The notes under the pieces: model-generated
The model's database searches: none
What the model saw: only the letters and a program-made list of their open reading frames with translations
What the model was told of the DNA's origin: nothing
DNA from: Chrysomallon squamiferum
Lineage: Eukaryota > Animalia > Mollusca
Direction: 5' to 3'
Assembly (NCBI GenBank): GCA_012295275.1
Contig: CM022669.1
Location: 17,794,001-17,858,000 of the forward strand
Length of the DNA: 64,000 bases
In this document: positions 4,248 through 59,179 of the stretch, piece after piece
How the letters are laid out: every line of letters begins with the position of its first letter
How positions within the stretch are numbered: position 1 is the stretch's first letter
Program-made: the position numbers and the translations under genes

Positions 4248-4461
4248 CTAAAGTTCTTCTTTCGTTTTTATATCTTCCTGTTCCTTATCATTTCCCATCC
4301 ATTTCTTCCCGAACTCCGCACTGTACTTTTTATATTCAATCATGAAATCATTTCCTAAATATTTTTTGTAAGTTTCCACAAAATCGGACACGTTAAATGC
4401 CATAAGTTCTTCCCAGGAAAGATTGTCGTTTTTGTCTGTGTCAAATTCTTCGAAAACCTTA

Positions 4462-4520
<59 letters not shown>

Positions 4521-4674
4521 CAACAACAACAACAAAACAACAATAACAATAATAACAATAACAGTAACAGTAACAATAACAATAATAATAATAAAAAGAA
4601 GAAGATGATGAAGAAGATTAAGATTAAAAACAAGAATAATAAGAACAAGAACAGCAACAACAACAAAGCATTAA

Positions 4675-9547: not shown

Positions 9548-11198
9548 CAATAAACAAACATTGATTAATTAATAATTGAGAGTATCATTAAATAAAATAC
9601 ATTCTAAAATCAGTTATTTGCTTATTATTATTATTATTTGTTGTTGTTGTTATTATTAGTAGTATTATTTGTTATTGTAGTTGTTGTTGTTTTTATTATT
9701 ATTTTTATTTGTTGTTGTTATAATTGTTCTCGTATCGCTTGTTTGTTAGTTATAAATCGTGTAAGAGTTTTTCTGTAACATCTGTTGTTTTTGTCTAGTG
9801 AGAGCAGATAACATCCGGGACAAAAAAAAAAAAAGAAAAAAAAAAGGAATAATAATAATAAAAAAAAGAAGAAAAAAAATAAATAAATAAATAAATAAAT
9901 AAAATAAAATGGATTCAAAATTACAATAAATTAATGAACTGTAAAAAGAGCATTTACTTAACGAGATGTACGGATGTCAAAAGTTTTAGTTTAGTTTAGT
10001 TCAGTTTTGTTTTTGTTTTGTTTTTTTGGTTTATATATATATTATATTATTATTATTATTATTATTATTATATTTATTTATTTATGATTTTGTTCTGTAC
10101 TTTTGTATTTTATTTTATTTTTGTTTTTTTTTTTTTTATTTTATTTTACTTTACTTTACTTTATCATTATCATTTATTATTATCATTCTCATATTATTAA
10201 CGAGAATAACAAATTCAGAACTGCAATCTGTGAGCACTAAAACAAAAAACTGTCCAACGAATGGAAGCATAATCAAAATAAATTTTCTTATATAAATGAC
10301 TCATCCTTATCATCAAAATTATATCCTTAAATTATTTATGATTAGTTATCTTTCTAAATGATGACATTCTGCTCAAATTCATATCTGTATCATAACTATT
10401 TAAAATTATTTCCAGGCGATGTCATAATAATACTTGTACTTAAAATTAAGTCTGCGTCAAAAATGATTTCAGCATGCTCAACATTATTTCCGTAACAGAT
10501 TGACGTAAAGGTTTTTACTCAAAATAAATTCGACATACCCCAGATAGTCAACATGCTCAAAATTATTTCCGTAACAGAATGACGTAAACATTTTTACTAA
10601 AAATAAATTCGACATACCCCAGATAGTGAACATGCTCAAAATTATTTCTGTAACAGATTGACGTAAACATTTTCATTCAAAATAAATTCGACATACCCCA
10701 GATAGTCAACATGCTCAAAATTATTTCCGTAACAGAATGACGTAAAAATCAAAATAAATTCGACATACCCCAGATAGTGAACATGCTCAAAATTATTTCT
10801 GTAACAGAATGACGTAAACGTTTTTACTCAAGATAAATTCGACATACCCCAGATAGTGAACATGCTCAAAATTATTTCTGTAACAGAATGACGTAAACAT
10901 TTTCACTCAAAATAAATTCGACATACCCCAGATAGTCATCCGTCCACAACGTATAGGCAGGAAGCTTCGTCCGTGTAAGAACATTTCTAAACAAGACGGG
11001 TTGTCCACGATCCACATACCTGCGAAAAAATTCTGGAGGGTCGGGGAAATCGTCCAGCGTGGGGATAGCTCCAACAGGGGGAGCATGCGCACCTAGTGGT
11101 TGCAAATGTCCCGGGGGGTCGCCACTACTGCTAACAATCGAATTGAAAAAGCACAAAAGGAAAAATAGTACTAATTCTGACGACGTCCTATCATCCAT
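4248..11198 (-). CDS. JmjC (cupin-like) Fe(II)/2-oxoglutarate oxygenase with signal peptide, C-terminal EF-hand and KEEL ER-retention-like motif; ~411 aa, 7 exons
   Basis: Exons 11198-10927, 9276-9125, 8191-8022, 7273-7113, 6495-6328, 5144-5042, 4457-4248; all GT-AG and phase-compatible, total 1236 nt. Motifs: hydrophobic N-terminus LVLFFLLCFFNSIVSS; PEFFRRYVDRGQPVLFRN; WFSSGGTRSVLHSDEFDNINCLLDGTK (HxD); GDCLFIPSNWFHQV (distal His); EF-hand loop DTDKNDNLSWEE; terminal KEEL-stop. Confidence 0.9.
5727..6063. repeat. Perfect 55-bp inverted repeat (arms 5727-5781 and 6009-6063, 227-bp spacer) in a JmjC gene intron
   Basis: GTAGTATTTTAAATTCTATATACCAAATGACATCATGATGAAAGAGGGAAATCTC is the exact reverse complement of 6009-6063; the flanking TAG/CTA microsatellites are also mirrored. 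Confidence 0.9.
6845..7110. repeat. Degenerate ~20-28 bp minisatellite (core GGTCAATTACA..TATA..GTTAT) next to the exon-4 donor of the JmjC gene
   Basis: About ten recurrences of (G)GTCAA(T/A) spaced ~20-28 bp. Confidence 0.65.
8710..9089 (-). mobile_element. Degenerate non-autonomous DNA transposon (hAT/MITE-like) in JmjC intron 2
   Basis: GC-richer block. One end reads CAGTGTCGTATTAC...AGGGCCCTAAGGC...GGGGCCC and the other GGGCCCCTAAGCTT...CTTAGGGTTAAT, a subterminal GGGCCC pattern typical of hAT-derived MITEs. TIRs are degenerate. Confidence 0.35.
9303..9544. repeat. (TACA)n plus (TA)n compound microsatellite
   Basis: Direct runs; accounts for the MYVC ORFs. Confidence 0.95.
10473..10938. 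repeat. 79-bp minisatellite, 6 copies, spanning the exon1/intron1 junction of the JmjC gene
   Basis: Unit starts CATGCTCAA at 10473, 10552, 10631, 10710, 10782 and 10861 (one copy 7 bp short). Each unit contains ACATACCCCAGATAGT, which is minus-strand ACTATCTGGG|GTATGT. Confidence 0.95.
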
Positions 11199-11279
11199 TG
11201 GAAACGAACACGATAAAAGTTGTCGTTACCGCGATGAATATAAACTTTTCTACGTTCAGCTCAAAACGTTTCGAGCATA

Positions 11280-13098: not shown

Positions 13099-13203
13099 TT
13101 CGTGCAGCACGTGTCGAGCTTGTTCTTTCTTTTTCGATTCAGTCGAGACGTTACCGGAGTAGTGCTCGTGCCAAAAAACAGAAAAAAAAAAAAATATTGA
13201 GCC

Positions 13204-13827
13204 ATGGCCACCAAAGTTGTAACGGCGCATCCCAAATATCTGGATATGACACAAGCAGCCATAAACAGTTTAGGAGAGAAGGGTGGTTCATCAAGACAGG
13301 CCATCCTGAGGTACATTTTGGAAAATTTTGATATAGTAGCAAACGAAAAAGTTGTCAACAGTCACCTGAAAATGGCGCTAAGACGAGGGGTGGAAAATGG
13401 CGATTTAAAACAATCGAAAGGAACGGGCGCGTCAGGTTCATTTAAAATTGGCGAAGCAGCCAAGCTGAAGGAAAAAGTAGCAGCGAAATTGAAAGTGGAT
13501 AAAGCGAAGGCTGAAAAGAAGTCGAAAACGGAAAAGAAAACGAAAGAAAAAAAGCCCGCCAAATCTGAAGACAAAACAAAGAGTACGAAAAGTTCGGTGA
13601 AAAAGCCTGCATCTAAGTTGGTTAAGCCGAAACCAGAAAGCGAAGATAAGACGCCAAAGAAGAAGAAGAGTGTCACCATCTCAAAAGTCAAATCGGTGGT
13701 AAAGACGACGCCCAGCGCGGCGAGCAAGACGAAGAAGCCAGTTGCGGAGAAATCGCAAAAGAAAAAGGCCGCCATTAAGAAACCGAAAACTCCAAAGAAA
13801 ACGCCGAAGAAGGTTGTCAAGAAATAA
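13204..13827 (+). CDS. H1: Linker histone H1, replication-independent H1.0/H5/H1-delta-like; 207 aa
   Basis: Winged-helix globular domain HPKYLDMTQAAINSLGEKGGSSRQAILRYI...HLKMALRRGVENGDLKQSKGTGASGSFKI and a Lys/Ala/Pro-rich tail with TPKK motifs. Solitary, no canonical 3' stem-loop, AATAAA at 13887-13892. Confidence 0.96.
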   Translation: MATKVVTAHPKYLDMTQAAINSLGEKGGSSRQAILRYILENFDIVANEKVVNSHLKMALRRGVENGDLKQSKGTGASGSFKIGEAAKLKEKVAAKLKVDKAKAEKKSKTEKKTKEKKPAKSEDKTKSTKSSVKKPASKLVKPKPESEDKTPKKKKSVTISKVKSVVKTTPSAASKTKKPVAEKSQKKKAAIKKPKTPKKTPKKVVKK

Positions 13828-16044: not shown

Positions 16045-16438
16045 TCATGTGTTCCACCAAATCCAAGTTGTTATAGTGCGACCAGCTACAACTGTCGTGT
16101 GGGAGCCAAGTTCTTTGTCTACGAATGTTATTGGAAAAGAAATATAATCTCTGGAAAATAAAAAAAAGAAGAAAATGAAATATACATATTAATTTTTATA
16201 CAATTTTTTTTTTTTAGTATATGTACATATGTGTGTATATGTGTGTGTGTGTATGTCCATATTAATGAATGTGTGTGTATGTATGTATGTATGTTGCTAT
16301 ATGTGTATAATACTGAAAAGTAATACTATAACATACTGTATTTCATAGAGAATTATGTCAAAGTATTTTAAACCGATTCTTAAAATATTTCTTTTTATTT
16401 TATTGTTTTGCATCAAATACACCATGGATTGATTTTCA

Positions 16439-16514
<76 letters not shown>

Positions 16515-19500
16515 AATAATAAATGTAGTAGATCATAAAATCAGAAGCTGTCTGCAGCTCAGTTTTTGGAGTATTTGATCTGAATTCTGACTAATAACAT
16601 GATCAGTTCACTACATTGTTTTCCAGTTCCAGCCAGCACCAAAGTTTGGTTTATCAAACAGGAGCCTAAGGGAAGGTGTGTAAAAGAAAGATTCCTTGCT
16701 GCTAACTGATGAGTGGTGGTTGAATGTTTCCTCTGTTGTTACATCACTGAACAAAACTCATTTTGTATATCTTGCTATTGCTAATATTCAAATATATTTT
16801 TGAATGTTAATTTTATGAATTTTTATTAATTCACTAAAATTATTGAGAGAGAAAAAAAAAATTGTAATATTATATTTTATTTTTTAAATTAACTAAATAA
16901 ATTATTTATTTATTTACTTACTTACTTACTTAATTATATTTTATGTTATGTTATGTTATGTTATGTTATGTTATGTTATGTTATGTTATGTTATGTTATG
17001 TTATGTTATGTTATGTTATGTTATGTTATATGTTATTTTAGCTGTTCCAGTATTTGATACTCACTCGTTTAAAATGGTTAAAACAATAGATTTATCTGGG
17101 AGGAGAAAAGCAACAGAGAAAAGATTCTTCCTGATACTCGACTGTACAAGTTTAACTCTCTTTGCTCCTGGTATCACAAATTTACTGGAACAAAAAATAG
17201 GAGCAAACAATTAGATACAGAGAAAGTGCTTAAAGATAGAAAAAAAAACTAATAATAAAAATTAAAAAAACTTAGACAGAGATAATTATTAGAAAATATA
17301 TAAAAATGTTTTTGATAAGTTCATTATTTATTTTTCAGATTTTAATTAATTCTGATTTAAGCTGATGTACATAATGTAACATGCAATATTTCATGACAAC
17401 TTTTTCTGATGATGTTTCATACCCAATATATTGCCCATATCAGTGTCAAAGATTGCTGTTAATGTAAGGTAGGCTTATTGCACAGTTAGATGATATAATT
17501 ATACTAGCCACTGTATTGAGTGTTCACTTGTGTGTGTGCTATGTAAGTTTTGGCTGTAGGGTCCAAAGGGTTAAATAAATCATATAAGAGTGGTCACACC
17601 TGATGTATGTTAGGCTGCTATGTCAGTTCATATCAGTTTGTCAGCTGTTTCAAATCTAGTTTATTAAGTGGCCATTGTAGCTATTTTACTAACTATGGGA
17701 AGGTGGATGTAAAAAAATATCTTTGTTGCTAAATCAATAACAGTGATCAATGAAAATATGACATCAAGCTTCCTTTTACTTTTAGTAAAATAAATTAAAT
17801 AATAATTTAAAAAAAATAATCCATTCATTAAATAAATATATACAAAAACTATCCACACCTGAAATGTCCCATTGCATAAAACATTGGCTGTTTATAGAAT
17901 TCCCCCATCTTGGCATTTACAATTACAGGACTGTCCACAAAATTGTTTACCCAGTTTGGGCCTCCTTGCATATCCAAAACAATGTTCCAGTCAGTCCAAC
18001 CAGTGACCCAGTGATTCAAATCCTACACAGCAACAGAACAGAATGGTATATCAGTATTTTTAAACTATAATTATCAATAGCATATTTAATTATCCACATA
18101 CAGAATTCTGTTCTTTTACAAGTTATGATTTCAGTGTTTAATATTTACCAGTTCTATAATAAAATTATACTTTTAAATAATCATTATTTTGATGCTGTTT
18201 TAAAACTCTTTTAATTTTTTTGAAATTTCTTTTAATATTATAAATTTTTTACCCTAAAGGAATTATTTTGAGAAAACTTTAAATGGCATTTGAAATCATA
18301 CTGAGCAAATATTAATTTCCATTTAAGTAGCTTTTACTCTTAATTAATACCAATATATAACTTTGATTATCGGATATCTTTTTTATATCACATGCAGTAA
18401 TACTTATTTCCATAACAGAGACATTTTTTCTATTAATAAATTTACTATATATATATGTATATTTGTTTGTTTGTGTGTGTGTGTGAGTGTGTACATTATT
18501 TTAGCTAAAGAGATATATAAATAAAGATAGCGATATAGGGATATAGATGTGAATACAAAGATATAATAAACAAATGAATAATTATTAAGCGAGCAGTCTT
18601 ACCTGTATAATGGAATGAGCATAATTGGCAGCTCTTTCCCAGCTGCCAAGAATGACTTTTCTAAACTGCCAGGGCTGTGAACCTTCGCAAGCTTCAGTGG
18701 CAAGGATAAACTTGGTGGGGAATGTGTCGTGGGTTTTGTCAAGGATGGAGAGTGGGGTAATGAAATCCCAATACCAGTGGACTCCTATTCCTGAGACATA
18801 TTTCAGATTATCTAGATTTGAAAATACCTGGTTGGATGAAAATAGTTTTTAAAAAAAAAGTCTTTAAAAAGAAAGATTAAAACTGTCTTAAGATGAAGTA
18901 ATGGTTTGAATCAAATTTAATCTTGTTTTTTTCGTTTTTTCTTCTTAAATTTGGTTAATTTAATTAGAAATTATATCCATTCCACCCCTCTTATATTCTA
19001 TTTTTATTTTATTACTATTACTATTATTGTTAAAATTTTATTTTATTTTTTATTATTATTATTATTGTATTTTTTTACCCAAATGCTGGACTGATTCTGT
19101 TTGTGAATGTCTACAGCTGTCTCCTGTTTAAATATCTTTCATTTTCATTGAATGACTGGTTTAATTAGGATTTCTTTGTGCAGTGTGCTGAGACAAATAG
19201 AGGTGAAAAAATCCAGGAATTTATAAAAATTTATAAATAAAATAATTATATGGCCGCTGATGATGTTCTAATTAACAAATATGTTCCTGTTTATCAAACG
19301 TCTAAGCTTTTTAACTACCCTCATACGCAATAATTAATTTAACTAGTGTTTGTGTATACACTTAACCACTTGGGCCCAGCTCAGTCAGTAAGCTAAGAGT
19401 CACTGCACTGGGTATTCATTCAGCTATAGTGGGAATGTGAAATTATGCTGTATCCTGCATAAACACAATACATTTTGAGCGTGTGTTATTAAATAATGAA

Positions 19501-22500
19501 AACTGACAAAAGCACCTTTTTCATAGTTTATGTCAAAATTATTTGTATTGGGTCTGGTATTATCTGGTATTATAAGTCATACAATTTTCTAGCTACAAAT
19601 GACTGTGGTTTTGCCTTTTTCTGAGAACATATCAATTATTTCTTTCTAAATTACTGTGCTGAAATTCACTTCACAATTCTGCAAACTTTTCCTACCATGA
19701 CAATCTGCTGCATTCCCCTCACCATTACATGATGAACCATTTGACCTGTCGTTCCAGTGACAAGACTGACCAGGACGTTCATCAAAGGAATGTGATAGTG
19801 CAAGGACTCTTGTGAACATGAAGGACCGAGTGAGACACATATGAAGACATGATGGTGGCTCTGGCATGGAAAGAAGCTCATCTTCTGAGCATCGTGCTCA
19901 CCAATGTGCAAAGTCCAAATGTCAAGTGAAAGCAGAATGGTGGTACAAAATAAACCTGCAGCTGTGCTAGAAACTCAGACTGGATTTTTTGGACCAACTC
20001 CGCATATGTCATCAGCCAGCCAGGAAAGAAGACTATGAGATAATACAAAATATTTTTTCACTTTATGGCTTGCTGCAGAACTATGATCAAACTTCACATA
20101 TTTCCTTCTGTCTTTTCTTTATCTGTGACAGCAGCACCTATCCACAAAGACAGAGAATCGGGCCCATGTTGAAAGACCAGCCCACTTCACAGAGTGCCAT
20201 TTTCTGGTAGACTGCTACGTGAGTGGAACATGAAGGAATAAAAATTTCCATTGCCAGCATTGTAACATTTCATTGTGCCTACAGTGTTTTGAAATTTACC
20301 ACACTGTTGACTAATGGTGTAATCAACTGTATAATTATTTGAATAAGATCGAGTACTGACTATGTTATTATTTTAGTCAGATCCAGTAGAACTAATTCGA
20401 TTCATGAACCATGAAAATGCACTTTTTAATGATCTCAATATATTAGGTTTAATTAGGTAATAAAAAGATTACTGAAGGCACTGATCTTTTCAACAGAATA
20501 TGGCTACGCAGGGTATAGGATGATTTCACACTCCCACTACAGTTATCTCAGTGAACAGCTAACCAGTGCAGTGACTCTCGCTCAAGGACCATGGAAATGA
20601 TGATGAAATCATCTGTCTCTACTCCAAAGTTTACCAGCCAAAATATCAGCTTGGAAAACCTAATCAAAATATACCAATCAGTGAAAATAAACTAACTGTC
20701 GTCATCACTCTGGATCAAACCCAAGTACAGTGACCCGGGCCAAAGTAGTAATGTAAACAAACACTACATAGTTTGTCCCATGAAAAAGAAATAAAGCAAA
20801 AATGTATCAGCCATTAATAAAACAAAAAAACAACAACAAAACATAAATTGTAGATTAAGTCATTTGAAAAATAAAAAAAACCCTTCAAACAACCCCCCAA
20901 AAAAAAAAAAAAAATTATTTATCTTATGAATCAAAAACAAAACAAATTATTATTTATCTTATGAATCAAAAACCAAACTAATTCTACATTTACTTCTGAA
21001 ACAAAATAAGTGATTAAAATTATTTATTTGCAGGCAGTCAGTTTGTGGTTAGTGAAGAAAGCAATCACTTAGGGAAACTGAAACAGCTGATTAACTCTTC
21101 TGGTGCCACTGGTGAGATATTTTGACATGGCACTGTAGCTTAAATAAAGCCTTAATACTTTGCTAGTTAGATGGTGTTGTGTCAAAAAGGGTTAAATAAA
21201 TACACATATAATGATCACTGGTATAAAACTGGACACCTGTATTATATCATGAACATAAAAAATAGCCCGGTTGAGACTTCCTAAAAGTACATTGTGTTGC
21301 CATGGCCATTCTCCTGTGCATGCCTCACTTCCAAAAATAAATTTGTCTGGGAATTTTGCATGCATAACGTCCATGGCATCAGCTGAAACGAAGGCATCGA
21401 GATACCAATGAAGTGCAATTCCAGAGACATATTTAGCAGCAGCTGCATCTTGCAGTACCTTCAGAAAAATGTTGTTTGTTATATACTGCTGAGGTATCAC
21501 TGACAGGATTAGATTTTAATAAAGTTTTAATTATCATTATGGTTATTTTATGTTTAAAAAAATAAATAAATAAAAAGGAAAAAATAATACATAGACTCTG
21601 GGTATAAAAAAGCAACAACATTAACACATAGAATTAGAGGGGGAAAAAAATTAAATTTACATTTTCATGATGTATCCAAGTTATAAATAAATTGTTTAAA
21701 GAAAAAAGAAATTTAAAGATTTCTTTTTGTCAAAAAATTAATACAGAATTAAATAGTTTGTTAATATGAAATATCCAAATTCAAAGAGAAAACCTAAAAA
21801 AAATTACCAAACTGGTGTAGAGGATATGACAGAGAAAAGTCTTAAAATAATATTATTAGATAATAATGACACTGCAAATTATTCAGTGAATAATAACAAT
21901 AATAATAGTGGTAACAACAATAATAATAATAATAAATAACAATTAATAAAACACATTCAACAATAAATAAATAAATATTTTAAATAAATGAATGAATGAA
22001 TGAATAAACTATAATAATATAAACTACCTTATCACTCCATTTAGCAATCAAAACTCTCTGATCATCAAGCATCATCAGCTTGATGTCGCTGTAGCCGTTG
22101 CTGTGAAGGGCAGGTCCCAGATCCTTTGCGATGAAGTCTCTCTGCATTTCTGGTGTCCAGCCCATGCACTGGAAGTAGAATCTGTCAATTTCTCCATCAG
22201 TGGGCTCATTCTGAGCTGTGAGACCCCACAGTGTGATGTTGTGTTTTTCATATTCTTGAAGAAATCTGAAACAGAAAATGGATTCTAAAATAAAATGCTG
22301 CCATTACAAAACGTCATCTTATCTTGCTCATACATTTTCAAAAACATGTAGGTATGAACATCCTTCTTCATACTACTGACCAAAGTAACAGTAAAAAGCA
22401 AAAATAATACAAACAATTACAATACATTTTCCATCAAATCATTCTTTAAATTTTGGAAACAGTAAAATAAATAATTCTCAGAAAAAGTTTTTATCTATAT

Positions 22501-25500
22501 AGCAAAGATGACTACAGTAAGGTTGGTCTGAATAAAAGAAATTTATGTGATAAAACTAAAAATTTAAATAACAATTACAATAAAAAAAAATTAAAAAAAA
22601 GATACAGGCAAAGCAAAAAAAATATATATATATATATAAATACAAAAACATAATAATTATATATTTATAAAGCAAACAAAATGATTCACGACAAGTAATA
22701 TAAACAAACAAATTAATTAATTACCTGACAAAATAATTAGCCCAGGTTTTAAAATACTTCCCACCAGGTTGTCCAATGAGCTGCCCTTTCCCAGTCATAT
22801 TTTTATTTGTCTTCATCCAAGCAGGGGCACTCCATGGACTTCCAAATATGGAAATATTCCTTTTGTTTATAGCAATGGCTCTTTGTATAACAGGAATCTG
22901 AAATGGGTATTGTTATATTTATATTTAACAAAACGATGGTACACACTGAGAAAAATAGGTTGCAATCCAATTAGATATTCATTTATTTGCTTTGGTATGT
23001 AATATCTGTAAAGAATAAAGAAAAAATAGCCCACTAATTCTGTCACCTTATATTTGAGATCTTCTGGTGCCAGTGCAAAGTGCACCAAATCAAAATCATT
23101 GGGAGTGTCATCATAGGAATAGGGATGAGTTGAAAAATCACAGCTTGCCATTGGAATACGCCCAACCGTATATTCGATTCCTGAAGAAAAATATATTAAT
23201 TTTAGAAAAAAAAAATAATTAAAAATAAAAATAAAAAACAAGGAACTTACTAAAAAAAATAATATTTTATAAGCATAAAAACTTTGAAAAGAAAACAAGT
23301 AAAAAAGAAAAACCAAACAATACATAAATATACATAACCAATGTAAAATTGCTTATTCTCCAATTATAAGAAATATACTTTGGTAATAAACTTTTTACAT
23401 CAGGAAGCATTTTGTTTTCAAATTTTTGTTAGTAATAACAGTTCAGATTTGAAATATTTAAGTACTGGCTATGTGAGACTTGCCTCAGAATTTGTGACGT
23501 GACACTGAATGAAATATTCACTGTAAATTATTATTATTTTGTTGCTTGCCTTCATGAGAATAGTATGATCTGAGAAGCTTTTCCTGAGCACTTTCAGGAA
23601 GACTCAGTATGTTGATGCCTGCTGCATCAGTAAATGCTCCACCAAAGCCTTGAATTGTCTGGTAAGTAGTACTTCGATCAATAGTAAAGACAACTAAAAA
23701 ATAAATTTATTACTTTATTCAGGTAAACAGTAATAATTAGAAAGGCAGACAGAGAACAATAATAATAATAATAATAATATTAATAATAATAATAATAATA
23801 AAAAATAAATAAATAGTGTAGAAAGAAAAAGAGAAAGAGAGAAAAAGAGAGAAATCCATTGTGTGGGAGGAACTGAGTGTATTTTGTGTATCTTTGAAAT
23901 AGAGAGGGAGGGTGGGGTGAGAAAGGAAGTAAAGTTCCCAGCTACACTGATAAGAAGAAGAAACATTTTAACGTGAAAACATTATTAATGTAACAAACAA
24001 ATCTGGCATTAGAATCATTCCATGCCAAAACAACCAAATTCCAGAAAATTTCCCAAATTGACCGTCTTCAATTTATGAAAACATTTCACTCATTTGTGCA
24101 TCCACATAGATGTTGGACATATTGGAATCAAATTCTTATTAGTTTTAATTGAACTCTGGGACTATTTTTGAAAGTTTATTTATTATAAGAATACTGAGAT
24201 GAAATGTGCTATGTTACATATTTCATATCAGGAGAATCTAAAAATGGATTCATTTTGTACATGTCTCTGATAGTCTTTGACTAGGAGATAATTAAAGTTT
24301 ACCTTTGTATCATTCATAAATTATATTTTTTATATTTTCAAGGTCAATTACTTTATGATTATTTGTCATTGATACAATTGGTTTATTGTTTTAAAGTATA
24401 TACCTATGGATGTTTCTTTATAAAAAAGAATCCAGTAAACTGTTAATATGTAGTTAGGGTCCAAAGTTGAGAAAAAAAATCTAAAATGTTAAAAATATGC
24501 ATGCCGAGTCAAGGTGATCTGACTATGTGAGCAATTAATATGATTAACTACTATCTATTTACTCTATGTTTTTCAAGTATTGACTTTCTGGCTTAACTCA
24601 TTGAGGGGTAAATGAACTTGGATTTCTAATCCCTATTTCAAAGTTCAAGAACAAAGCATGCACTATTTATCAATGCAAAAAACCTGCAGTTACATTCTCT
24701 ATTAAACAGGTTTTTTACTAGTAGTAACCATATCTTATTTTTAATCTGAATGTTATTCTGGCTATAAGTTAGTTTTAGTGTTACAATAATTTAAAAAAAA
24801 TGCTGTAATGTTTGTTAAACCAGAATCATGCAGCACAGAGCAAATAATTCTGAATCAAACATATTATTGGTAGCAAAACTTTAAGCAGAGATGAATTTTA
24901 CTGGTGGAATGCAGGAAACTAGCCATATCAAAGCTGTTATAGAGAATTGTTTGGTTAACAACACATATTTTCATTATATCTATTACCAAAAAATAATTAA
25001 ATTTAAGGCAGTATTGGATATATAATAGGCTGTTGAGGACAATTAAATAGAAGTTTCAGTAAGTGAATGAATTAATATAGTGAAACCCTTCCAGAACCAA
25101 ACACTCTGTAAACTGGAACTCCCTAGAAACTGGACATTTTTTTGCTATTCCTTTTTAAATATCAGTTCTGAATATAACCTCAATAGATCTGCCATTGAAG
25201 ATTATATATCAGATTTTTTCACCTTCCATGAATTGGATTTTGATGACATTGTGTACAAACAGAGGGTTAAACTAACAATATTAATAACAATAATGATAAT
25301 AACAACAACAAAATACTGATACCAATAAAAAACATCAAATGAAAAAAATAACTAACTGTCAGCCTTAGACTGGTTGTTGAAATGTACAACAGTTTTGCTG
25401 AGTGTTTGATTTTCAGATGTCACATACTGAGCAATGCCACCTGGTGGAAGCTTTATATTTGGTTCCACAGTGTCACAGTAGGTAGAATTACAAACACAAA

Positions 25501-26363
25501 CAATTCCACCATTTCCAAAGTCACGTACAGAACATGGAACAGTGGCTGAAACAACAACAAAAAATTAAAATAAAATAACGTAAAATAAAATAAAATAAAA
25601 TAAAATAAAATAAATTAATAAATAAAATTTATATATATATTTTTTAATTTGAAAAGAAAAATATATAGCTATAAATACTTAAGTCATTGAACAATTTAGA
25701 ACCTGAATAAATTTTCACACTACTTAAATCGCACTATTATTGCCTCAGAAGTTGTATTATTATACATGAACCACTAAAATTTTCACTTAAGTTTAAGAAT
25801 TCATTCTCCAGAACTGGGGCATGGAATCATATTAACAACACATTGTAAATTTAATATTTATATCTACATGTGAACAATATCTAATAATAACGTCACACTT
25901 TACCAAATTCCTAATGTTAACATTTTCAGGTTACAAGCTTTCATGTGATTTTTCTGTTTATTTATTTATTTATTTTAGGGTGGAAGATTTGTGTATGCAT
26001 ATACATATGAGATCTATCTACTTTAGTATGAAATGTGTCATAATAAATCGGTAAGCAGTTTTATTATATAAATTTGTATCAAAACTCATTGTTATTGTTA
26101 TTATTATTATCTTATAATTACATAAAACGACAGGGTACTGCCTAGACCTAAATCAGGTTTACTTGAAGAATCTAAGTTCTATCATGATCCCATTGATCGT
26201 CTATCATAGATTTTATGTCGATACCTATTAGTATTACTTTTTTCTTTTTACTAATACACGAAATACTAAATGGATTTCATGTTCAACTTATAGACTTGCC
26301 TGTTTGTATAGGTTTCAAAAAAAATATCAGTAACGAGACGATACAAACTAAATTTAAAAACAT
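16045..26363 (-). CDS. GBA1: Lysosomal acid glucosylceramidase (glucocerebrosidase, GH30); ~517/518 aa depending on the alternative exon
   Basis: Exons 26363-26300 (signal peptide, GC donor), 25545-25357, 23693-23550 (GC donor), 23180-23047, 22897-22725, 22265-22028, [21458-21237 or 18827-18603], 18022-17859, 17184-17065, 16150-16045. Motifs: [55 protein letters not shown] (acid/base Glu), HWY, EAC (nucleophile Glu), [36 protein letters not shown]. Confidence 0.96.
16943..17033. repeat. (TTATG)n pentanucleotide microsatellite
   Basis: Direct run in the last GBA intron. Confidence 0.9.
18603..18827 (-). CDS. GBA1: GBA catalytic-nucleophile exon, copy B (75 aa)
   Basis: CAG|[75 protein letters not shown]|GTAAGA; 225 nt, phase 0/0, no stops. 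Confidence 0.92.
19650..20230 (-). mobile_element. Decayed LINE (RTE/CR1-like) ORF2 3' fragment in the intron between the duplicated GBA exons
   Basis: GC-richer block. Frameshifted minus-strand translation ...ELVQKI...[21 protein letters not shown] resembles the post-RT 'LLYGCETWTL...KL..F' segment of non-LTR elements; contains multiple stops. Confidence 0.4.
21237..21458 (-). CDS. GBA1: GBA catalytic-nucleophile exon, copy A (74 aa)
   Basis: AAG|[74 protein letters not shown]|GTGTCC; 222 nt, phase 0/0, no stops. Confidence 0.92.
25076..25275. mobile_element. Degenerate Tc1/pogo-type MITE remnant in a GBA intron
   Basis: Left end TATAGTGAAACCCT followed by repeated AAACTGGA(A/C) subterminal motifs; imperfect right end AGAGGGTTAAACTA. 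Confidence 0.3.
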
Positions 26364-26698: not shown

Positions 26699-29600
26699 AT
26701 GTCCACGCAACAGCTGTTTTATGCACTAAATCGGGAAGATTTAGAGTAAGTTGTAATGTAGATATTATACATGTATATATATATATAAAATTCTAGCTAT
26801 TAAATTCAGTGCAAAGGGTCAAGGTCAGATGTACGGATTTTATTAACGCCGATAAACCGACTGTTACAACTAATGGTACAATGCCGACCGTGAATAATTG
26901 TGGGTTTCTTCCAGACTATTTTCTATGACTGACTGCTTTTCAGAACAGTTAAATATTAATTTACAAGAAAAAGATTCTGCTTCCTTCACTGTATAAAAAC
27001 AATATTCATTATTCATTTTATGAAATTAATCATGTTTGACGTCATATTTAATATTACGTATACCATGAATCGCATGATAATCTCAGGTTAAGCCACTAAC
27101 TTGTGACCAAAATATTAAATTGTTATTTTATTTGAGACAAATTATTACTGTAATTTTTGGATGTGAAGTTTTTAATCAAACCGAAATATTGTTTTTCTGT
27201 ATATTTATACCATCTATATATAATATAGTATATAAATAAATAAAATAATTTATTTTGGGTTTCAGTGAAGCCAGACTCTTGTTGGACGCTGGAGTTGATG
27301 TTAATGTAGTTCTGCCCGAAGAAGGTGTAGCACCATTGCATCTGGCTGCAGGACTAGGTACAGATGCAATTAAACTACTTCTTGAATATGCTGCAGATCC
27401 AAACATAAGGTAGCCTTTTGGACCCCTTTTCAGTTTGTTATTATTGTTTATTTATATATATTTTTTATTTATTTTAATATTAATTTTAATTATTTTTTTT
27501 TTATTGTAATTTTCAAACTCGTTTTGATATCTCATGTTAAAGTAACAACTATTTGTACATAAGCTTTTCAGATGGCATTAAACTAAATCTTTTTTGAATT
27601 CATTTATTTCTCTTTAGATCTGTTGAAGGTTTCACACCTCTTCATATTGCTGCAACATGGGGTGAAGTAGAAAATGTCCGACTGTTGTTGTATAGTGGGG
27701 CAGATCCCAATCTCTGTGATCAGGCAAGTAACTACCAACTGTCCAGAAAAATGTTGTTCATTTAATTATTATTATTTTTTTTAATTATTTATTTATTTAT
27801 TTATTTAATAATACACACATACACATACACATGTATGTGATATATTATATGTATAATTTAAGCTATTTCATTATTTAAAAAATTAAAATAAATTTGATAA
27901 TTTTGTTGTTTGATAATACAAATATTATGTATTATTTATTTACAGTGACATTTTTAAGATGTTGTTTTAAGTTACTTAGATTTTTTTATGGTTACCATCA
28001 TATGACAACTTAAAATATGTGTATATAAGATAATATATATCATTTTTAATTTTTTTTTTTTTTTTTTTGAATATTTTAGAATTACACAGTATTAAAATGT
28101 CATTAATATTTAATATAAAAGAAACCTGTATATTTTTATAACAGGATGGTTTCCTGCCTGCAGATGTCGCTAAGACATACGGACACAGTGACTGTGTTTG
28201 TCTACTCAAATATTACAGTTTACTTCTTTTTAACAATGAACAGGAAGATGAACAACCAAAATACATTAGTAAGAAAAACAATGTTTTTCATTTATTTATT
28301 AGGGTATACATTTGTATAATGTATCTGCCTAATTAAAACAAATTTCTTAGCTTTAAAACCTTTTGTTGTTGTTTGTTTTTATATGTGTATATATAATACG
28401 TGTCAACAACAATAAAACAGTAATAAAAAAAAAAATAATAATAATAAATATAAAACATTTTTTTATTATTATGAAAGGTTAAGCATTAGTTATCTATTAA
28501 AAATATTTATTTTCCTTTAAAATTAATTAATTTAATATTGACATTAATGTTGTTTTAATGTTTGAATTGTTGGATGTTTTCTTATTTATTTATATATTTT
28601 ATTTTTAGGAAAAAGCATCGACAGGTCTAAACTGTCAGACATTGCAGAATCAAAAGACAGCATGGTGCATGACATATCCAATAACTGGAACAACGGTTTC
28701 TTGGACTCGCCACCCACAAATTACACTGACGTATTTCAGAAACAAGTTTATGACAGTGTCCAAAAAGGAAGGAACATATTTGTTGATATGACATCACCGT
28801 GCCATCCTACAATTCACACAAGACAAGCAGCTGGCAGAGAATGCAAAAAGAAGAAAGCATCTTGCTTCAACAGACGAAAAACTTTAAAGATTTCTAGTTC
28901 CCATTTGTCAAACCAGTGTGACACTGCTGATTACTGTATACCAGAGTCTTATGATTATGCTGAAAAATACTGTGGTCTGAATAAGGTTAAGGCACGTGGT
29001 GAAAATAAATCTAATGTTTTATGTTCTTGTTGTGATGATCACATGACCACTGGACACCTCTACCAGAATAATTGTCAGCAACATAGCCCATGTGGCAGCA
29101 GAAAACAATATTTCACTAAGAAAACTTACCAAAGGTACTTTCCTCAACCAGTATCATTGTCACCAAATCATCATGATGACATCTGCACAGCAAAAAGACA
29201 TTGTGACTGCACATATCAAATCACAGAATGCCAACAGTGTCATAATAATTGTTGGCATTATGAATATCCAGTAATTAAATGTGATGGAAACAAAGGTCAT
29301 TTTTACAAATCGTCCTGTATTAATGAGATGGTTAATAAAAGAAAAACTCCAGTTTCAAACACCATCAGCAGCCCACCCATAAAACCTCTTCTTGAATCTA
29401 TACAGAGAGAGACACCAGAAGCAAAAATAAACAGATGGCAGTCCTCTGGTGTATTTGACAGCAAACCAATATTGGAAATCAAACCCAAAACTAAAAAATG
29501 GTTTCAGCCATTGACTGATGATTCCGAATGTGAGCCTGCTAACTCTACAGTTGATAAACAGCTTTTCCAGTGTTTGGAAAAAGGGAAAAGATTCTGTCTA

Positions 29601-32600
29601 GATGTAACATCACCAAATCACCCATTTTTGGATACAAAGAGTTTCCAGTTTAACGTTTCCGCTGCATCATCTGCATTTGACTCAAGTAACTCGCTGTTTT
29701 CTCAGTCTTTAAATGATTCCAACAATGATGAGTGTGGAATTGAGGAATCTTTATTGGTTGTAGATTCTCCTAACATCTCTCCAGCAGTTGAAGGAAAACC
29801 TCCTGTTCATCCACTGAAGAGGTGCAGTATGACAGATATTGGTGGCAGAAACAATAATAATAAAAATTACAGATCAAGAATGAATCGTATCAATGGTGGA
29901 ATGACAAATGGTGTTTTGAATGACAATCTCTTACAGCTGCATAGATTTCTCATCCATCGTCAAACATCTGCAGTAGTTCCACAGCAAGAAGCTGAAATAG
30001 AGAACAGAAAAGAAAACATATTGCTGAGTCCAAACTGTGTTGGAACTGCTGATGATGATGTATGCCAAAGGAAGCAGGATACAAAAAATACATTTGTAAA
30101 ACAAAAATGTATGATAATAAATAGTGATGTGCAGGAGCTTGACAATGTTCAAAATGCTGAAGATGAGTTAGATTTTAAAGGTGAAGTGACTGGTTCATTA
30201 AGGATACCAGGAATTGACCAGAAAGATGTTGAAAATAGACAGAGAGAGGTAAAGACCAATGTTATAAGTGACGGCAATTATGTTTTAAGTACACATCAAA
30301 CATCTTCCAAAGAGGTTTCACCACAACTTGCAGAAAATCAGAAATCAGCCAACAGTGGTGATCTCAGTGAAAGATTTGTAAATAATGAAGAGAGTGGTGA
30401 TAAAGATGTTGGTACGGCAGCTGAAACAAATGGATCAAGACTCAGTGAAGGTAGCATTCTCTCAGCTTCATCTTGTGATACATTTAAAACGTGTGATGAT
30501 GACACAGAATTCACCATAGTTACACACATGAATAATACAAGTGAAAAGGACATCACCAACAGCAATGTGAACAGTTCTCAAACAGAGGAAGGCTACAAGG
30601 AACAAAAGGACAGGGTTGCAGGAAATAAAGAAACATACAGTGTTTCTGAACTACAAGCACGACCTTCACATTGTCGTGTTTGGTCAGCTCCTGAACTACA
30701 CACAATACTAGATGACAGTAATCTAACAACATCTGATGAAAGCTTTTTAAATCCTACGGACAGAAATAAATTGCAATTTCAGACAGATTTTAGTTTACTA
30801 TCACAAAGAAGAACAAAAGAACCACATATGTCTGATGTCACTAAAAACAAAGAAGAAAAAGGAAAGATATCAGAAACACTGAGTAGAAAGGCAAAGAGAA
30901 GAAGCAAAAATGTTTTCCATCGACAAACTAGCCTAGAAGCTTTAGATCTTAATCTGTCTCAAGATAATGCACAAAAGTTGAAAAAGAATCCATCCAAAAA
31001 ATTATTTCCTGATGTTTTTGAACTTAAGAACAAGTCAGAAAAACAGAAACATAAATGGCAGCCACCTGTAAATGTAACCTTTGACGAATCTGATCTGATG
31101 ACATCCGACGAAAGTTTCTTGTTGAGAGAGAAAATGTGCTATGAAAATATCACCAAACTCGCAGACACTTTTGACAAAGTTTGTGTGGAGACGGAAGAGG
31201 AGCAGAAAAAGGGGGAGCACTCTAGTTTAATCAGTGTAAACAACTCAAAAACAGATGCTGCTAAATCTCTTGTCAACAAACGACTCTCGACAGTGAATTC
31301 ATCTTCTGTTTCATCTTCTACTGATGCTCTGGATGTTGGGTTCTGCAAACGCACATCTCTAGATAGTGTATACAGCAATCTTTCTTGCAAAGAATATGTG
31401 TACAAAGATGATGAAACAGGTGTTGTTCTCCTAGAACGGCATATTCCATCTGATCATGAGGGCAGCATTGACAGAAATTCCATCGACAGCCTTTTCAGCA
31501 TTCAAACGGCAGACACTGAAAGGACAGAACTTTATGACTGGAAGGCCTACCAATCTGATCAGAATGAATCGACAGATGAAAAAACCACAACACAACCAAC
31601 TTCTTCAGTTCCTGACCAACTGTCTCAGATGTCTAATGATGAAGTGCGAAAAAAGCTGAAGGCTTTAGGAGATGAACCAGGTCCTGTTGTACCATGCACT
31701 CGACAGCTGTATCTTGTCAGACTGGCCAGTTTGCAGTCAGATCCATACCACTTACACATGGTCAAGTTGACTGACTCAACTCCAGGTAAAACAAAAATCT
31801 TTAAAAATCTTTTATTATTTATCTCATTTATTGTAATTAAATTAAATTTGTTATTTAAAAATTATCACTGCAAACCGAAAATGTCTTTCAGACTGACATC
31901 TATCAATTCCACTGAATTTCTTAATAGAATGTTTCTGCTTTCAATATCTGAAATCCTGTTTCTGGTACAAATCAAAATAATAATAATAATTAGTTATTTT
32001 CATGTGTATATAACTGTCATCACTACTAACATCTTATTTTGTGGGCTTATCTGCATATATATATATATATTCTCAGTTACATTGTTTTTATATTCCTTAG
32101 TTATCAATCACTATAGGCACTAACAGAAACAAAAATCTCCTCCTGGTCAAATTATTAAATATAATAGTTTTGAATAAAACAAAACAAACAATTTTTTTAT
32201 TGTTAGAATGTTCTCATTAAAGAAAAAAACAATTAATTGAAAAAAATTCATAAAAAAGATAATAATTTATTGCACATCTATTAAATGTATCTTGAACATT
32301 TCTAACAGATTACTCTCCAGAGCTTCGACTGGCATTACAAGACAAGTTAGATTTATCAGACACAGATGAACTTGAGGCCAAGATGGTGGCACCGTTTGTT
32401 AATCCACAGGGCAGAAAATGGCGTGAGGGGACAATCAAGTCTTCATTTAACTACCTCCTCCTTGATCCTAGGGTCACTAAAAATCTACCACTCAGAGCCA
32501 AATACTTAGGTTTGATATTAAAAGAAATCTTGTCTGTACATACGTCTGAGTATGATTCTTCTGTCAGTGTCAGATCCATCTATTCAGAATGTCACTCTTT

Positions 32601-34154
32601 GTTTTATTAAATTACCTCTTGTTTTTATTATAATATTTGGGGTAGAAAAAAAAAACCAAATAAATAAAATACTTGCATTTTGTATGCACTCTTATAACCA
32701 AACATATCTAATATTTTTTTTTATTATTTCAGGAGAATTGGAAACCTTCCGTGTTTTTATAGCTGCCATATTTTATGTGGGCAAAGGAAAAAGGTCAAGA
32801 CCTTACTCACATCTGTATGAGGCTATTACTCACATGCAGAAACCAAAAACAAAGGTAATTTTTAAAAGTGTTTTCTAACAAACAATTTTTAATAAAAAAC
32901 CCACTTTCATTATACATGTATTCTACATGTAATTTTTCAAGAACATTCATTCACTTTCAGTGTATATTAAAAATATGCTCATATGTGTAAATCATATTTA
33001 TTAAAGATTTTCAAAAGCATTTTTGTAACCTTTTTTTATTTTGTTGATTTTTATTTCTATTTAAATCTAAATTTCAATTTTTATAAATTTTTTCTTATTA
33101 TTTATTTAACTTTCATTATAATACCATGATAATAATCAGAAAAAAGGAAATATAGCTCTTACAAATCAGAATTTCTTTTTCAGGCTAGTGCTAAGGTGCA
33201 ACATATTGTTGACATTTGGCAGGAAGGTGTAGGTGTGGTCTCACTCCACTGTTTTCAGAGCACCATCCCAGTGGAAGCCTATACAAGAGAGGCTTGCATG
33301 GTCGAGGCATTTGGTGAGTTGTAGTTTGTTACATGCAAGATAGGCCTTTGATGAATTGTAAATTGTTACACACAAGGCAGGCTTTTGGGGAGTTGTATTT
33401 GGTTACAATGAACTTTCTTTTGTTATTTACAAGGCTGAGTTGTATTTTTTGTTATATATATATATACATATATGACTAGATTTTTTTTTGAATTACATTT
33501 GGCTAAACACATATGTAAGTAAATAGATAAAAAAATATATATAATAATAGAAATAAATATTTTTTATTTAAAAATATTGCACACATGGATCTTCAAAAAA
33601 AAGCGTGATCAGCTTTTGTAATTTTAACAGACAAAATATTTTCTTTAATTATCAGAAGCTCATTAAGAAACTACAATGGTAATTTTAGTTTGCAATCATT
33701 AAGAATTGTTTTGTTTGTATTTTATAGCTTGCAGATTGTGAAACCAATCTGAGTGTCTTATATTTTGTATACGCCATGATGATGAGAGATATAAAAAAAA
33801 ATGTTAGGTTTTTTTAATTTTTTATTTTGTTATTATTGTTATTCTTGTGTCTGAGTGTGTGTGTGCATGTGTTGATTATTAATTATGTTTTGGAATACTA
33901 ATTGTAAATGATGAAAATATTTTTCTTTTAATCTGTAAACTCTTTATACTATAGCAAATTGTCACATATGTATCTGTATATCAGGATTATCCAAACTGAC
34001 CAACATGAAGAAGGGTGATTTCTACGGAGCTGCCTGTTCTTGGTCACAGAAACAGAAGAGGCTTATGGGAGTGCTTTTACTGAAAAAAGCTCTGCAGATT
34101 TTTCTCAGTGACGGAGAAAGACAGATATGTCCATATGACATAAAGCAAGGCTAA
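26699..34154 (+). CDS. ANKLE1: Ankyrin repeat and LEM domain-containing GIY-YIG nuclease (ANKLE1/LEM-3); ~1406 aa, 9 exons
   Basis: Exons 26699-26745, 27266-27409, 27618-27723 (GC donor), 28145-28268, 28609-31785, 32309-32509, 32733-32854, 33184-33313, 33985-34154; total 4221 nt in frame. Ankyrins (GVAPLHLAAG, GFTPLHIAATWG); LEM domain (MSNDEVRKKLKALGDEPGPVVPCTRQLY); GIY-YIG region (WREGTIKSSFNYLLLDPR, IFYVGKGKRSRPYSHL, SLHCFQSTIPVEAYTREACMVEA, LTNMKKGDFYG). Confidence 0.95.
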
Positions 34155-38500: not shown

Positions 38501-41370
38501 TAAAATATACTTCCGTATATACATCCATTCACTCTTCCATAAAATAAAGTATCTTAAATTCATTTGTTCAGAATCCTTATTATTGTTGTTGTTTTTGTCA
38601 CTGAAAATTATTTATGATTATTTTGTTGTTTCTTTGATCAGAAATTCTCTGACAAGTAGAGTTTGTCTTCACCCATCATTACCCCTCACAGTGGAATGAA
38701 CCTCATTCCAAACAATGAATATGAAGAATGGGATATGCTGCACCAGATGCATCAAGACTGGTTACTTTGTTTTTATTTTCTTGGATATCCTTATGTTCAT
38801 TTGTCACTTATCAGTTCTTTCACAACTTTAATGCTTTTTCTATTGAATGTTGCTCCAGATTTGTAAATTAATGTCTAGGAGTAATATTCAAAGATAAAAG
38901 AAACTCCAACATAGCTTTTGTAAATTTCTGTAAAGTCTAGACATCTGTTTTTGTTTAAGCTCTTTTCTTGTACTAACAGAATCCCACATTTGACCCTAAT
39001 CAGCAGTATATGAATTGTAAAACCAAAAAAAGACCTGTTTGGAACTATACCGTTTTTATATTTTGTAGTTGACATTAAAAAACTCTTTCTCACCTAGTGC
39101 TGTTTTCTGGTCTTATTCTCACATTTTCTTCATCTTGTTTTTATATTAACAACTGCTGTAAAATTAGCAACCAGGTGTCTAATATGTGGGAAGTATATGT
39201 AACAGTAGCACTTCAGCAATCATTTTTCTTTTGAAGTCTTTTTTTGTTTTTTATTTTACATGTGAAAAATATCAATGTATAAGCAAACTGCAATATTTTT
39301 GTTTATATTTAACACATGGACTGGCCAAATGTCAAAGCCTATGTAAAGACATATGACAAATTTGTTTCAACTGTCTATTTAATTATTTTACCTACAGTTT
39401 GTTATCTTTTAAGATCATTCAGTATATAGATAATTATATTATTGTATATAAATTCTATACAGAAGAGCATGAAGGTATTTTACCTTCCCTTAAAATGTAA
39501 GTGAATGTTATTTCAAAAAATAATAATAATAATAAGTAATAGGATATCTAATAGTTAGTTATGTAACAGTAATATTGAATAATACAGATGCTGAAATGAT
39601 TAAATTTGAATGCCCCAAAGTTGATCTTATCCATTCATTCTTGATAACTGCCATATATATATATATGTATTTTTTTTTTGTTTATTTGTTTACATTTACT
39701 CCTGAAAATTCTTTTTGTTGTCTCTAAAAAATTATTTATTTAGTTGTTGGTTCAGTTACTTTGATTAGAACTTTTCTCACATGCAGACTTCATTTTCACT
39801 GACTGTTACAACCATTCCAGATGGTGCAGGTTTTCCTAAATGATTTTGATCCAGAGTATGCTTTAGCACTCACAGTTTGATGATATACTAGTGATGAAAT
39901 GACAATGATTTGCTATCATTCTTGTAAGACAACAGCCAGATATTTGTTCATATAATTGTTACTGTTCATTCTTTAGGTGGTTTCCAACTAACAACTCCTG
40001 CTTTATCATAATATTCATATTCATCCAGAGAAATATCTGTAAAAACGGTAATAATATTGTTTATCCACAATCACATTCCACTACCACATTTTATTTAGTT
40101 ATTCATTATTTCACACCAGTTTAACATTTATCATGCCAAGGTTTGTTGCTTGATTTAGTAAAAAAATGTTAGTATAAATATATTTATAATGAAAATAGTC
40201 CTGTTTTTAAAAATATCTCTGGCATATTATTTAGCACGTATTTTCATCAACAGATAAAGACATAAGAAGTTTTTTTATTTTTTTTTTATTTTTATTTTTT
40301 TGTCCTTATAGTATAAATTTATCTTCGTGTATGAGTTTCAACATAAAATTTAAAATCTAATCAAAAGAGGACAAGTCTTTAACTGTAAGTTTTGTAAATA
40401 ATTATAAATAAAATTCAAAATAATGAAAGTTAAGAAATATATATATCATAAAAACATATTTGAAATTCATTTTAACATGTAGATGTAAACTATTAACAAG
40501 TATGATTTAGTCCATTGATTTTGGTTTGATCTTCATAAGCAGCCAGGCCATTTCCCATTTTAAGCAGTGCTTTATGACTGGTGTATCTAAGGCCTTGTTG
40601 TTTACAAACATCTTTCTGGATTGTAGCAGGTTTTTTCTTTAGATTACCAAAATGGTATTAATAAAGTGATGATAGATAATATATTTTTTTCATTTTCTTA
40701 TTCATTTTATTTAATTTTAATTTTTAATTAATCAGTTTATTTTTTATTATTATTATTTTTTTTTTAAATTTATTATCTGAGCAAAATATATTTGTATATC
40801 CTACCACTTCTGTATTTTGCCCTTGTTGAAATGACAGTGACTTGCTGTCCTTGTCCTAAAAGACCAGCCAGATATTTGTTCATATCTCCACAAAGTTTAG
40901 TCTCATTACTATTACTGTTCATTTCTTTAGATGGTTTCCAACTCCTGTTTTTTTTATAATATTCATATTCATCCAGAGAAATATCTGTAAAAAAATGGTA
41001 ATAATACACTTAAGCCACAATCACATTCCACTACCACATTTTATTTCGTTATTCATTATTTCAGACTTGTTTTCACTCATAAGATTTATCATGCCACGGT
41101 TTGTTGCTTGATTTAGTAAAAAAAAAAAAAACCTCTCCTCTATTAGAGATGCAAATGATTAAAGTGAACATCAGATAAAAAGAAATAATATTAGGCTATT
41201 AAGTTCATCTTTTTTCCCATTAGAAACAGTTGTCAAAATAAAGAGAATGATATGAACATATTTCACCTTACCTGAAATTGTAAATGAATTTCATTAAATA
41301 ACAAGATAGCTATAAAAGTAATGCAGTAGCTATAAAAGTAAGATTGAATAATACAGATACTATAGCATTG
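35520..41370 (-). pseudogene. Decayed tandem segmental duplication (4-5 partial copies) containing minus-strand exon-like segments of an unidentified gene
   Basis: Module ...TTCATTTCTTTAGATGGTT...GAAATATCTGTAAAAAATGGTAATAATA...CCACAATCACATTCCACTACCACATTTTA at ~35520, ~37860, ~39890 and ~40800. A second module GAAGAGCATGAAC..ATTTTACCTT..GTAATATTGAATAATACAGAT at ~35830, 36070, 37010, 39460 and 41240. The best copy (40805-40985) is open with TTTTACAG acceptor and GT donor; the others are frameshifted. Confidence 0.5.
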
Positions 41371-41824
41371 GCACTTCAATGTCATATTTAGTTTGACACG
41401 TCATGACTGACGTCTGGAAAGTATGTCCACCAGAATTCTTCCACAGTCGTAACCGGTGGTCTTGAGCCTGATGATGGATTTAGCAAGCTGTAAAAATGAA
41501 TAAATAGACAATTAATCTTTTCATGATAGATCTTAGTATGTGAGAAAAACAAAAAAGTCACAGTTTATGTAAAACAAATTTCAACCAATATGATAATATG
41601 TGTGTGTTTTAAGAGTAATATATGTTTGTTTCATAAAAATCAATCCATGACAATTTCTTTTCTTTTTTTCTTTCTTTTTTGAAGAAGTATTAAAGCATTC
41701 CGTGACATCAATATATCTATTTTTGTGCCATAGTTTTGTTACTTTTATTACAGTTTATGTTTTTACAATTTACAAAAACTACATTTTGGTTTGCAATTTT
41801 GTTTTATTTGATGTTTATTGATAA

Positions 41825-41868
<44 letters not shown>

Positions 41869-51003: not shown

Positions 51004-51101
<98 letters not shown>

Positions 51102-51855
51102 GAATATTTAAAATAAAATTTCTGCAAGAACATCATAACTATTCATATATTTTTATCTCTTACCATAAACAGTAAATTGCAGATAAATATTTTAAACATG
51201 AAATGACACTGACTTTTACTGTAAGAACAATTTACATCCTCTACATGTTAACCACACTGGACATTTTTATGACAAATGGGTATTGTTTTAGAAAGCTTTA
51301 TAACTACATACCTGATAAATAGACTTGCTGAATTTCAATGCCTTTGGTATAAACTGGGTTTCCCACTGAATAACACAGAGGAGTTGGCAAACTAAACTGA
51401 CGTGACAATTTCACTTTATCTGAAAAAATAAAAATAAATAACAAAAATAAAATAGCTGTATAATTATGTATTTTTATATATTTTCAAACATATTTATTTT
51501 AAAACTTGATTTAAACTATTATTTTATTATAGGTCTTTAAAATTTAAAAAATTTTCATAATTATTATTTTAACAACATTAATAATAATAATAATAAAAAT
51601 AATAAACGGAAATAAAATAATCAAAATAACATTTCTTTTTTAAACAGAAGAAAAAAAAAAATAGAAGAACTTGGAAGATAATTATTTTCAGTCAGCCTAA
51701 AGCAAGGATGTATGTACCATTTTTTAAAAATCTAAATTTTATACAGACTACATTACAGTAATTTGTACAAATCATTCCCCGCCCAAAAAATAAATTACAA
51801 AATAAAGAGAGAAATCAATGTATTTTCCTAAGTTATAGCTAAAACAAGCAACTAA

Positions 51856-51902
<47 letters not shown>

Positions 51903-54099: not shown

Positions 54100-54134
<35 letters not shown>

Positions 54135-54567: not shown

Positions 54568-54614
<47 letters not shown>

Positions 54615-55333: not shown

Positions 55334-55383
<50 letters not shown>

Positions 55384-55518: not shown

Positions 55519-55599
<81 letters not shown>

Positions 55600-59127: not shown

Positions 59128-59179
<52 letters not shown>

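Follow-up and report, generated by a model that had tools for sequence, protein, structure and literature searches.

The question raised by this stretch of Chrysomallon squamiferum DNA is whether one glucocerebrosidase gene gives rise to two isoenzymes by splicing in either of two versions of the exon that carries the catalytic nucleophile. The window, meaning the whole stretch of 64,000 nucleotides (nt) that was analysed (contig CM022669.1 of assembly GCA_012295275.1, positions 17,794,001 to 17,858,000), holds on its minus strand a GBA gene whose exon borders were obtained using tblastn with two mollusc GBA proteins, and between its QNEP and GWTDWN exons lie two homologous exons, designated A and B. 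As judged from the gene sequence, either-or splicing of A or B with the synthesis of two isoenzymes is the probable explanation of this arrangement.

The gene is of the GBA1 type (GH30), with both the acid/base glutamate of the NEP motif and the nucleophile glutamate of the EAC motif present. The catalytic roles of E235 and E340 in glucocerebrosidase (GCase) are established, and the window gene is taken to encode a GBA1-type glucosylceramidase, for which hydrolysis of glucosylceramide is predicted. In an earlier sequence-only reading of this DNA, A and B had been described as paralogous exons, stop-free with AG/GT ends and phase 0/0, about half identical and flanked by single-copy exons, and all of this was borne out on the minus strand. 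BLASTP aligns the two with 36 identities over 75 positions (E 5e-24), their nucleotide identity by codon position is 50-62%, and tblastn finds every other exon once between 25545 and 16045 and the A/B exon twice. Two neighbouring homologous exons, similar in length and identical in phase, thus stand between single-copy flanks, which is the layout of mutually exclusive exons. Against PF02055 (cutoff 23 bits), exon A scores 70.2, exon B 67.7 and the following exon 91.8 bits, with A and B covering positions of about 218-289 of the family model, and the GC content of A (0.41) and B (0.44) can be compared with 0.20-0.23 in the short flanking introns. Spliced from the second exon onwards and ending in a single stop codon, the reading frame comprises 496 codons with A, 497 with B, 571 with both and 422 with neither, all four forms being in frame.

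Evidence that exon A is more than a decayed copy comes from its conservation. A profile was constructed from 125 homologous exon blocks, namely those of 127 single-copy proteins from which Gigantopelta and Haliotis were removed; these 127 hold all segments once and belong to a set of 138 homologues, made of the best 120 of 1065 proteins and a closest-protein search. On this profile, the score is 104.5 bits for A and 124.6 bits for B, with members ranging over 92-130 (5th percentile 100.8, median 115), and among the columns conserved at 90% or more A keeps 13 of 15 and B all 15. When B was allowed to decay neutrally to 49% identity, 92 of the 2000 runs stayed stop-free and none attained the score of A, the maximum being 65.4 bits. 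Since A scores like a member of the family, at a level that the decay runs never reach, it has evidently been long under purifying selection, and both copies carry in their sequence the mark of long-term constraint. These runs load all change onto one branch, and hence the control shows only that most of the divergence of A arose under selection.

Where the exon lies in the fold was examined using a predicted structure of the Gigantopelta aegis protein, which is of the B form. This model has a mean predicted local distance difference test (pLDDT) value of 95.7 and a template modelling (TM) score of 0.94 to human GCase (PDB 1ogs and 5lvx listed), and the exon region in it contains the strands 325-331 and 354-360 and the helices 341-349 and 377-391. 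By this model, the A/B exon would contribute two strands of the barrel together with two long helices, as well as loops 1 and 2. The expectation that the exon carries human E340 and the loops is upheld, as A and B align with residues 295/300-368 of human GCase. According to PMC6222826, loop 1 of GCase comprises residues 311-319 and loop 2 residues 342-354, and the groove for the alkyl chain is lined by W312, Y313, L314, F316, V343 and W348. W312, Y313 and W348 are kept in both A and B, with human L314, F316 and V343 replaced by L, A and T in A and by W, F and E in B, and such a change of groove residues may alter specificity.

Phylogenetic trees were built from 54 of the 138 homologues, hand-picked to cover molluscs and outgroups, with six further rows cut from the window gene, Pinctada and Tegillarca. 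The protein closest to B is that of Gigantopelta aegis (80% identity, a low-quality model), with 78% identity in the flanking exons. In the tree of 60 exon rows (75 columns), B pairs with Gigantopelta (99/88), and both fall within a starred set of 15 rows that also contains bivalve genes and a nemertean. The other starred set (40 rows) includes A along with Haliotis, further gastropods and another class of bivalve genes; in a 43-row exon tree, A is sister to Haliotis (93/76, not starred). The flanks group the window gene with Gigantopelta and Haliotis in the upstream tree (41 rows, 85/69), in the downstream tree (41 rows, 96/89, starred, with the bootstrap not settled) and when both flanks are joined (28 rows, 91/90), this last tree also placing the three with limpets at 95/92. 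With the flanks joined, a clade uniting the window gene and the B-type genes of bivalves is rejected (approximately unbiased, AU, test, p 0.0086), and hence exon and flanks seem to have different histories. In the gene models, Gigantopelta carries a B exon and Haliotis an A-like exon, each as a single exon; these genes are apparently orthologous and yet differ in the exon type of their annotation, as would follow from an ancestor that possessed both.

Among bivalve exon rows, all 12 of the B-type are closer to B and 6 of the 7 of the A-type are closer to A. Six class-marking residues were chosen after the alignment had been viewed and are not counted as a test. Several genera of bivalves carry a pair of GBA genes, in which the exon is of the A-type in one member and of the B-type in the other. 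In the Tegillarca model, two neighbouring genes of this kind are fused, in the order A-type then B-type, and their next exons are identical to each other at the protein level over 54 residues. The exon tree suggests that the A/B pair is older than the gastropods; however, AU tests do not reject a clade of A, B and Gigantopelta (p 0.174) or of A, B, Gigantopelta and Haliotis (p 0.155), so that a younger duplication is compatible with the data and great age is not established. One other homologue among the 138, the Pinctada imbricata model, has the A/B exon doubled in tandem between single flanks (residues 386-537). Its copies are 83% alike, both of the B-type, and sisters in the tree (100/99), so this duplication is separate from that in the window, and the pearl oyster gene is a second, independent candidate for either-or splicing. 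The remaining 10 of the 11 multi-hit models were set aside as fused genes or fragments and not doubled exons. Quite tentatively, a history can be drawn in which the pair predates the split of gastropods and bivalves and the GBA gene of the ancestral mollusc used splicing to switch the rim of its active site, with both exons kept in the snail lineage, parted between paralogues in bivalves and the exon duplicated again in the pearl oyster, which would make this exon a recurrent swappable module of specificity.

Several observations weigh against either-or splicing of A and B, or qualify what had been said of it. The differences between the two had been thought to lie exactly in the loops, which was not confirmed: identity is 4 of 9 in loop 1, 7 of 14 in loop 2 and 25 of 52 elsewhere, hence an even spread. 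None of the proteins found exceeds 59% identity to A, and no pair with identical flanks and a swapped exon occurs among the 127 proteins, in which such isoforms, being about 93% identical, would merge in 90% clusters. Frame and nonsense-mediated decay (NMD) cannot enforce the choice, as all four splice forms are in frame and inclusion of both exons or neither keeps the frame. A search of the introns for docking and selector sequences gave no RNA pairing above shuffled controls, the best intron-pair duplexes (-26.1, -28.2 and -19.2 kcal/mol) not falling below the minimum of 8 shuffles. Exon A has L at the position of human W357, where W is present in 124 of the 125 homologues and F in the remaining one, its end branch in the 60-row exon tree is 0.62 as compared to a median of 0.19, and its third-position GC is 0.28 versus 0.36-0.44. 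After 10, 15, 20 and 30 neutral substitutions, 224, 80, 20 and 2 of 500 runs, respectively, remained stop-free with a score of at least that of A; neutral drift of 10-15 substitutions thus often retains this score, and a recent loss of use is possible.

These last points are what an unlikely, yet serious, alternative rests upon, namely that A is a formerly working alternative exon which has recently gone out of use, with B alone spliced and A an early-stage relic. It would account for the leucine at W357, the long branch and the lower third-position GC, and the score of A is compatible with up to about 15-20 neutral substitutions; furthermore, the intron that follows A contains a probable transposon, and the model of the nearest relative, Gigantopelta, uses B only. 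However, the splice sites, frame and catalytic motif of A are intact, the position of W357 is naturally F in some homologues (5 of the first 40 rows listed from a 148-protein set), and 30 neutral substitutions leave only those two runs that match A. The finding that bivalves have separate A-type and B-type genes, with the Tegillarca order A then B, could instead point to a spare exon left from collapsed tandem A-type and B-type GBA genes, a chimeric locus in which the exon need not be regulated. This is very improbable, because a recent chimera would place the downstream exons with the B-type genes, whereas both flanks group with gastropods including Haliotis and the joined flanks reject the B-type placement at the AU value given above. 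A collapsed gene pair is possible as an ancient origin, which is compatible with either-or splicing.

Inclusion of A and B together in a longer protein is very improbable. It is allowed by the frame, with 571 residues from the second exon, and in the Pinctada gene model both copies are included; merging of in-frame exon copies is common in gene finders, and the joined layout is seen only in this predicted model, as opposed to 127 of 138 homologues that are single-copy throughout. The sequence-only reading held that double inclusion would break the triosephosphate isomerase (TIM) barrel, a view that is weakened by the predicted Pinctada structure. This retains a hybrid barrel, to which copy 1 contributes its first half and copy 2 its end, and the surplus, some 90 residues (about 431-520) predicted with low confidence, loops out at the mouth of the active site. 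As the alignment rows behind that prediction hold one copy only, it is biased; from the hybrid barrel and the low-confidence segment, double inclusion would be more likely to obstruct this mouth than to break the barrel. An assembly artefact or an allelic duplicate is close to negligible, as A and B, at 48% protein and 50-62% nucleotide identity, are too far apart to be alleles or a doubled contig piece, and their intronic surroundings are not repeated. What favours one gene with two isoenzymes is the selection history of A, the relatives with a single exon of either type and the position in the fold, and what detracts from it is the even spread of A/B differences, the ordinary donor of A and the lack of a pairing element.

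For either-or splicing of A and B, each transcript would take one of the two exons and the isoenzymes would differ at 39 of about 500 residues. B may be the default form, given its consensus donor, its 15 of 15 conserved columns and its use in the Gigantopelta model, with A being a lesser form or one confined to certain tissues. The claim that A has weak splice sites and B strong ones holds in so far as the donor of A is weaker than that of B, but GTGTCC resembles the constitutive donors GTGTGG and GTGACA of the same gene. Upstream of A, a CAGCAG motif 27-30 nt before the acceptor (21487-21459, minus strand) is a possible in-frame alternative acceptor. Steric exclusion, which the sequence-only reading had ruled out, is indeed unlikely with an A-B intron of 2409 nt; the AG-free zones measure 29 nt before A and 36 nt before B, the nearest AG thus lying 36 nt upstream of B, and neither steric hindrance nor a distant branch point fits these distances. 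With frame and NMD ruled out and steric hindrance hardly possible, exclusion would have to be brought about by splicing regulators, or by RNA pairing beyond what was detected. A 34-nt pairing across B was rejected as a regulatory element, being no better than shuffles. The two forms would share their catalytic chemistry and differ in the groove for the lipid tail, from which a difference in preferred glucolipid or in activator dependence is predicted. Five sequencing runs from two studies share 0.44-0.69 of the window's words; for a mostly intronic sequence such shares would point to DNA or unspliced RNA, and the runs were not used as evidence.

The exons and the intron repeat are collected in Table 1; the signal-peptide exon was not located upstream of the second exon.

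Table 1. Exons of the GBA gene and the repeat in its A-B intron, in window positions
Feature	Position	Strand	Details	Basis
Second GBA coding exon	25357..25545	-	start of mature protein	tblastn, borders
GBA coding exon	23550..23693	-	before GC-AG intron, donor AAG/GCAAGC (23550-23545)	tblastn
GBA coding exon	23047..23180	-		tblastn
GBA coding exon	22725..22897	-		tblastn
QNEP exon	22028..22265	-	single copy; acid/base glutamate by homology; phase 0 end	tblastn
Exon A	21237..21458	-	222 nt, 74 residues; nucleophile codon 21326-21324; AAG before, GTGTCC after; L, A, T at human 314, 316, 343; L at human W357	translation, Pfam, BLASTP
74-nt inverted repeat	19396-19461 and 20505-20578 (span 19396..20578)	.	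predicted duplex -84 kcal/mol	blastn E 4e-8
Exon B	18603..18827	-	225 nt, 75 residues; nucleophile codon 18695-18693; CAG before, GTAAGA after; W, F, E at human 314, 316, 343; 80% identity with Gigantopelta protein	translation, Pfam, tblastn
GWTDWN exon	17859..18022	-	single copy	Pfam, tblastn
GBA coding exon	17065..17184	-		tblastn
Last GBA coding exon	16045..16150	-	to stop codon	tblastn

The inverted repeat lies wholly inside the A-B intron and probably represents the ends of an old DNA transposon. The A-B intron has a GC content of 0.33, above that of its neighbours, and its part 19361-21195 has TTAA-bounded ends that resemble those of a piggyBac-like element, without which the intron would measure about 600 nt; four open reading frames in the intron gave no Pfam match. 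Elsewhere in the window, an intronless linker histone H1 gene (PF00538) is located at 13201-13827 on the plus strand, and an ANKLE1-like gene with ankyrin and LEM-3-like GIY-YIG parts, at about 27600-33320 on the plus strand, stands head to head with GBA. On the minus strand at about 41000-60370 are exons with an ankyrin repeat (Pfam match) and a P-loop-like motif, presumably resembling a death-associated kinase gene, and weak cupin-like and EF-hand matches below the Pfam cutoffs at 10875-11225 and 4251-4670 (both minus strand) probably mark exons that belong to one or two additional genes.

Searches starting from A brought up no further case. Among 50% representatives, no match of A over the full exon exceeded 57%, and a set of 148 proteins contained no clean case of exon doubling, three of them having partial repeats; none of 42 candidates among longer proteins qualified, the 18 loci on metagenome contigs matched over only 10-20 residues, and an Atlas search with A returned generic GH30 clusters only. 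The Ornithodoros "isoforms", tried as exon swaps, differ in their flanks too and are paralogues.

Importance of this locus derives from GCase being a risk enzyme for Gaucher and Parkinson disease, with loops 1 and 2 shaping its lipid-binding groove. If either-or splicing holds, a splicing event would swap the catalytic nucleophile together with a quarter of the TIM barrel strands, and isoforms alike but for one exon would offer a clean test of the role of the rim in the choice of substrate, in transglycosylation and in the need for an activator; the locus would also be a possible example of an exon pair that was later split between bivalve genes. If in addition the pair predates the gastropod-bivalve split, natural pairs of isoenzymes would isolate what loops 1 and 2 do. 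If A is unused, it is an ordinary relic.

Among known systems, Drosophila carries Gba1a and Gba1b as two whole genes, as compared to two exons of one gene in the window. As proposed for the window gene, this pair provides two glucocerebrosidase forms in one invertebrate (PMC4809718). Human GBA1 (GH30) shares family and fold, and A and B map to its residues 295-368, with E340 and the loops 311-319 and 342-354. No duplicate of the A/B exon in any GBA1 or glucocerebrosidase was found in the literature, most subscription journals lying outside the search, and "GBA" is absent from the main text of a catalogue of human tandem exons (PMC9741552). Tandem duplicated exons that are used singly are a known class, and that catalogue describes either-or homologous exons beside the ligand site in KHK, ACOX1, PKM and PFKP, with a conserved catalytic arginine in the duplicated exon of KHK. 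Such exons tend to avoid ligand-binding residues (PMC9741552), unlike the window exon, which holds a large part of the barrel active site. Gene duplicates may each keep one exon of a pair according to the same source, and the bivalve A-type and B-type genes fit such a split after gene duplication.

The mutually exclusive exons 4a/4b of OGDH resemble A and B in being a duplicated pair inside an enzyme, where a distant branch point and a long AG-free zone enforce exclusion (PMC7969005); in the window gene exclusion is inferred, and AG-free zones of 29-36 nt with an intron of 2409 nt make an OGDH-type mechanism unlikely. In coq-2, the mutually exclusive exons 6a and 6e of helminths, annelids and molluscs remodel the enzyme core and switch substrate via two residues (PMC7434440). 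Splicing and the functional switch are demonstrated there, whereas the window pair is known from gene sequence, has 39 differences and carries the nucleophile. With homologous exons in an enzyme core and molluscan representatives, coq-2 constitutes the closest functional precedent for the A/B pair.

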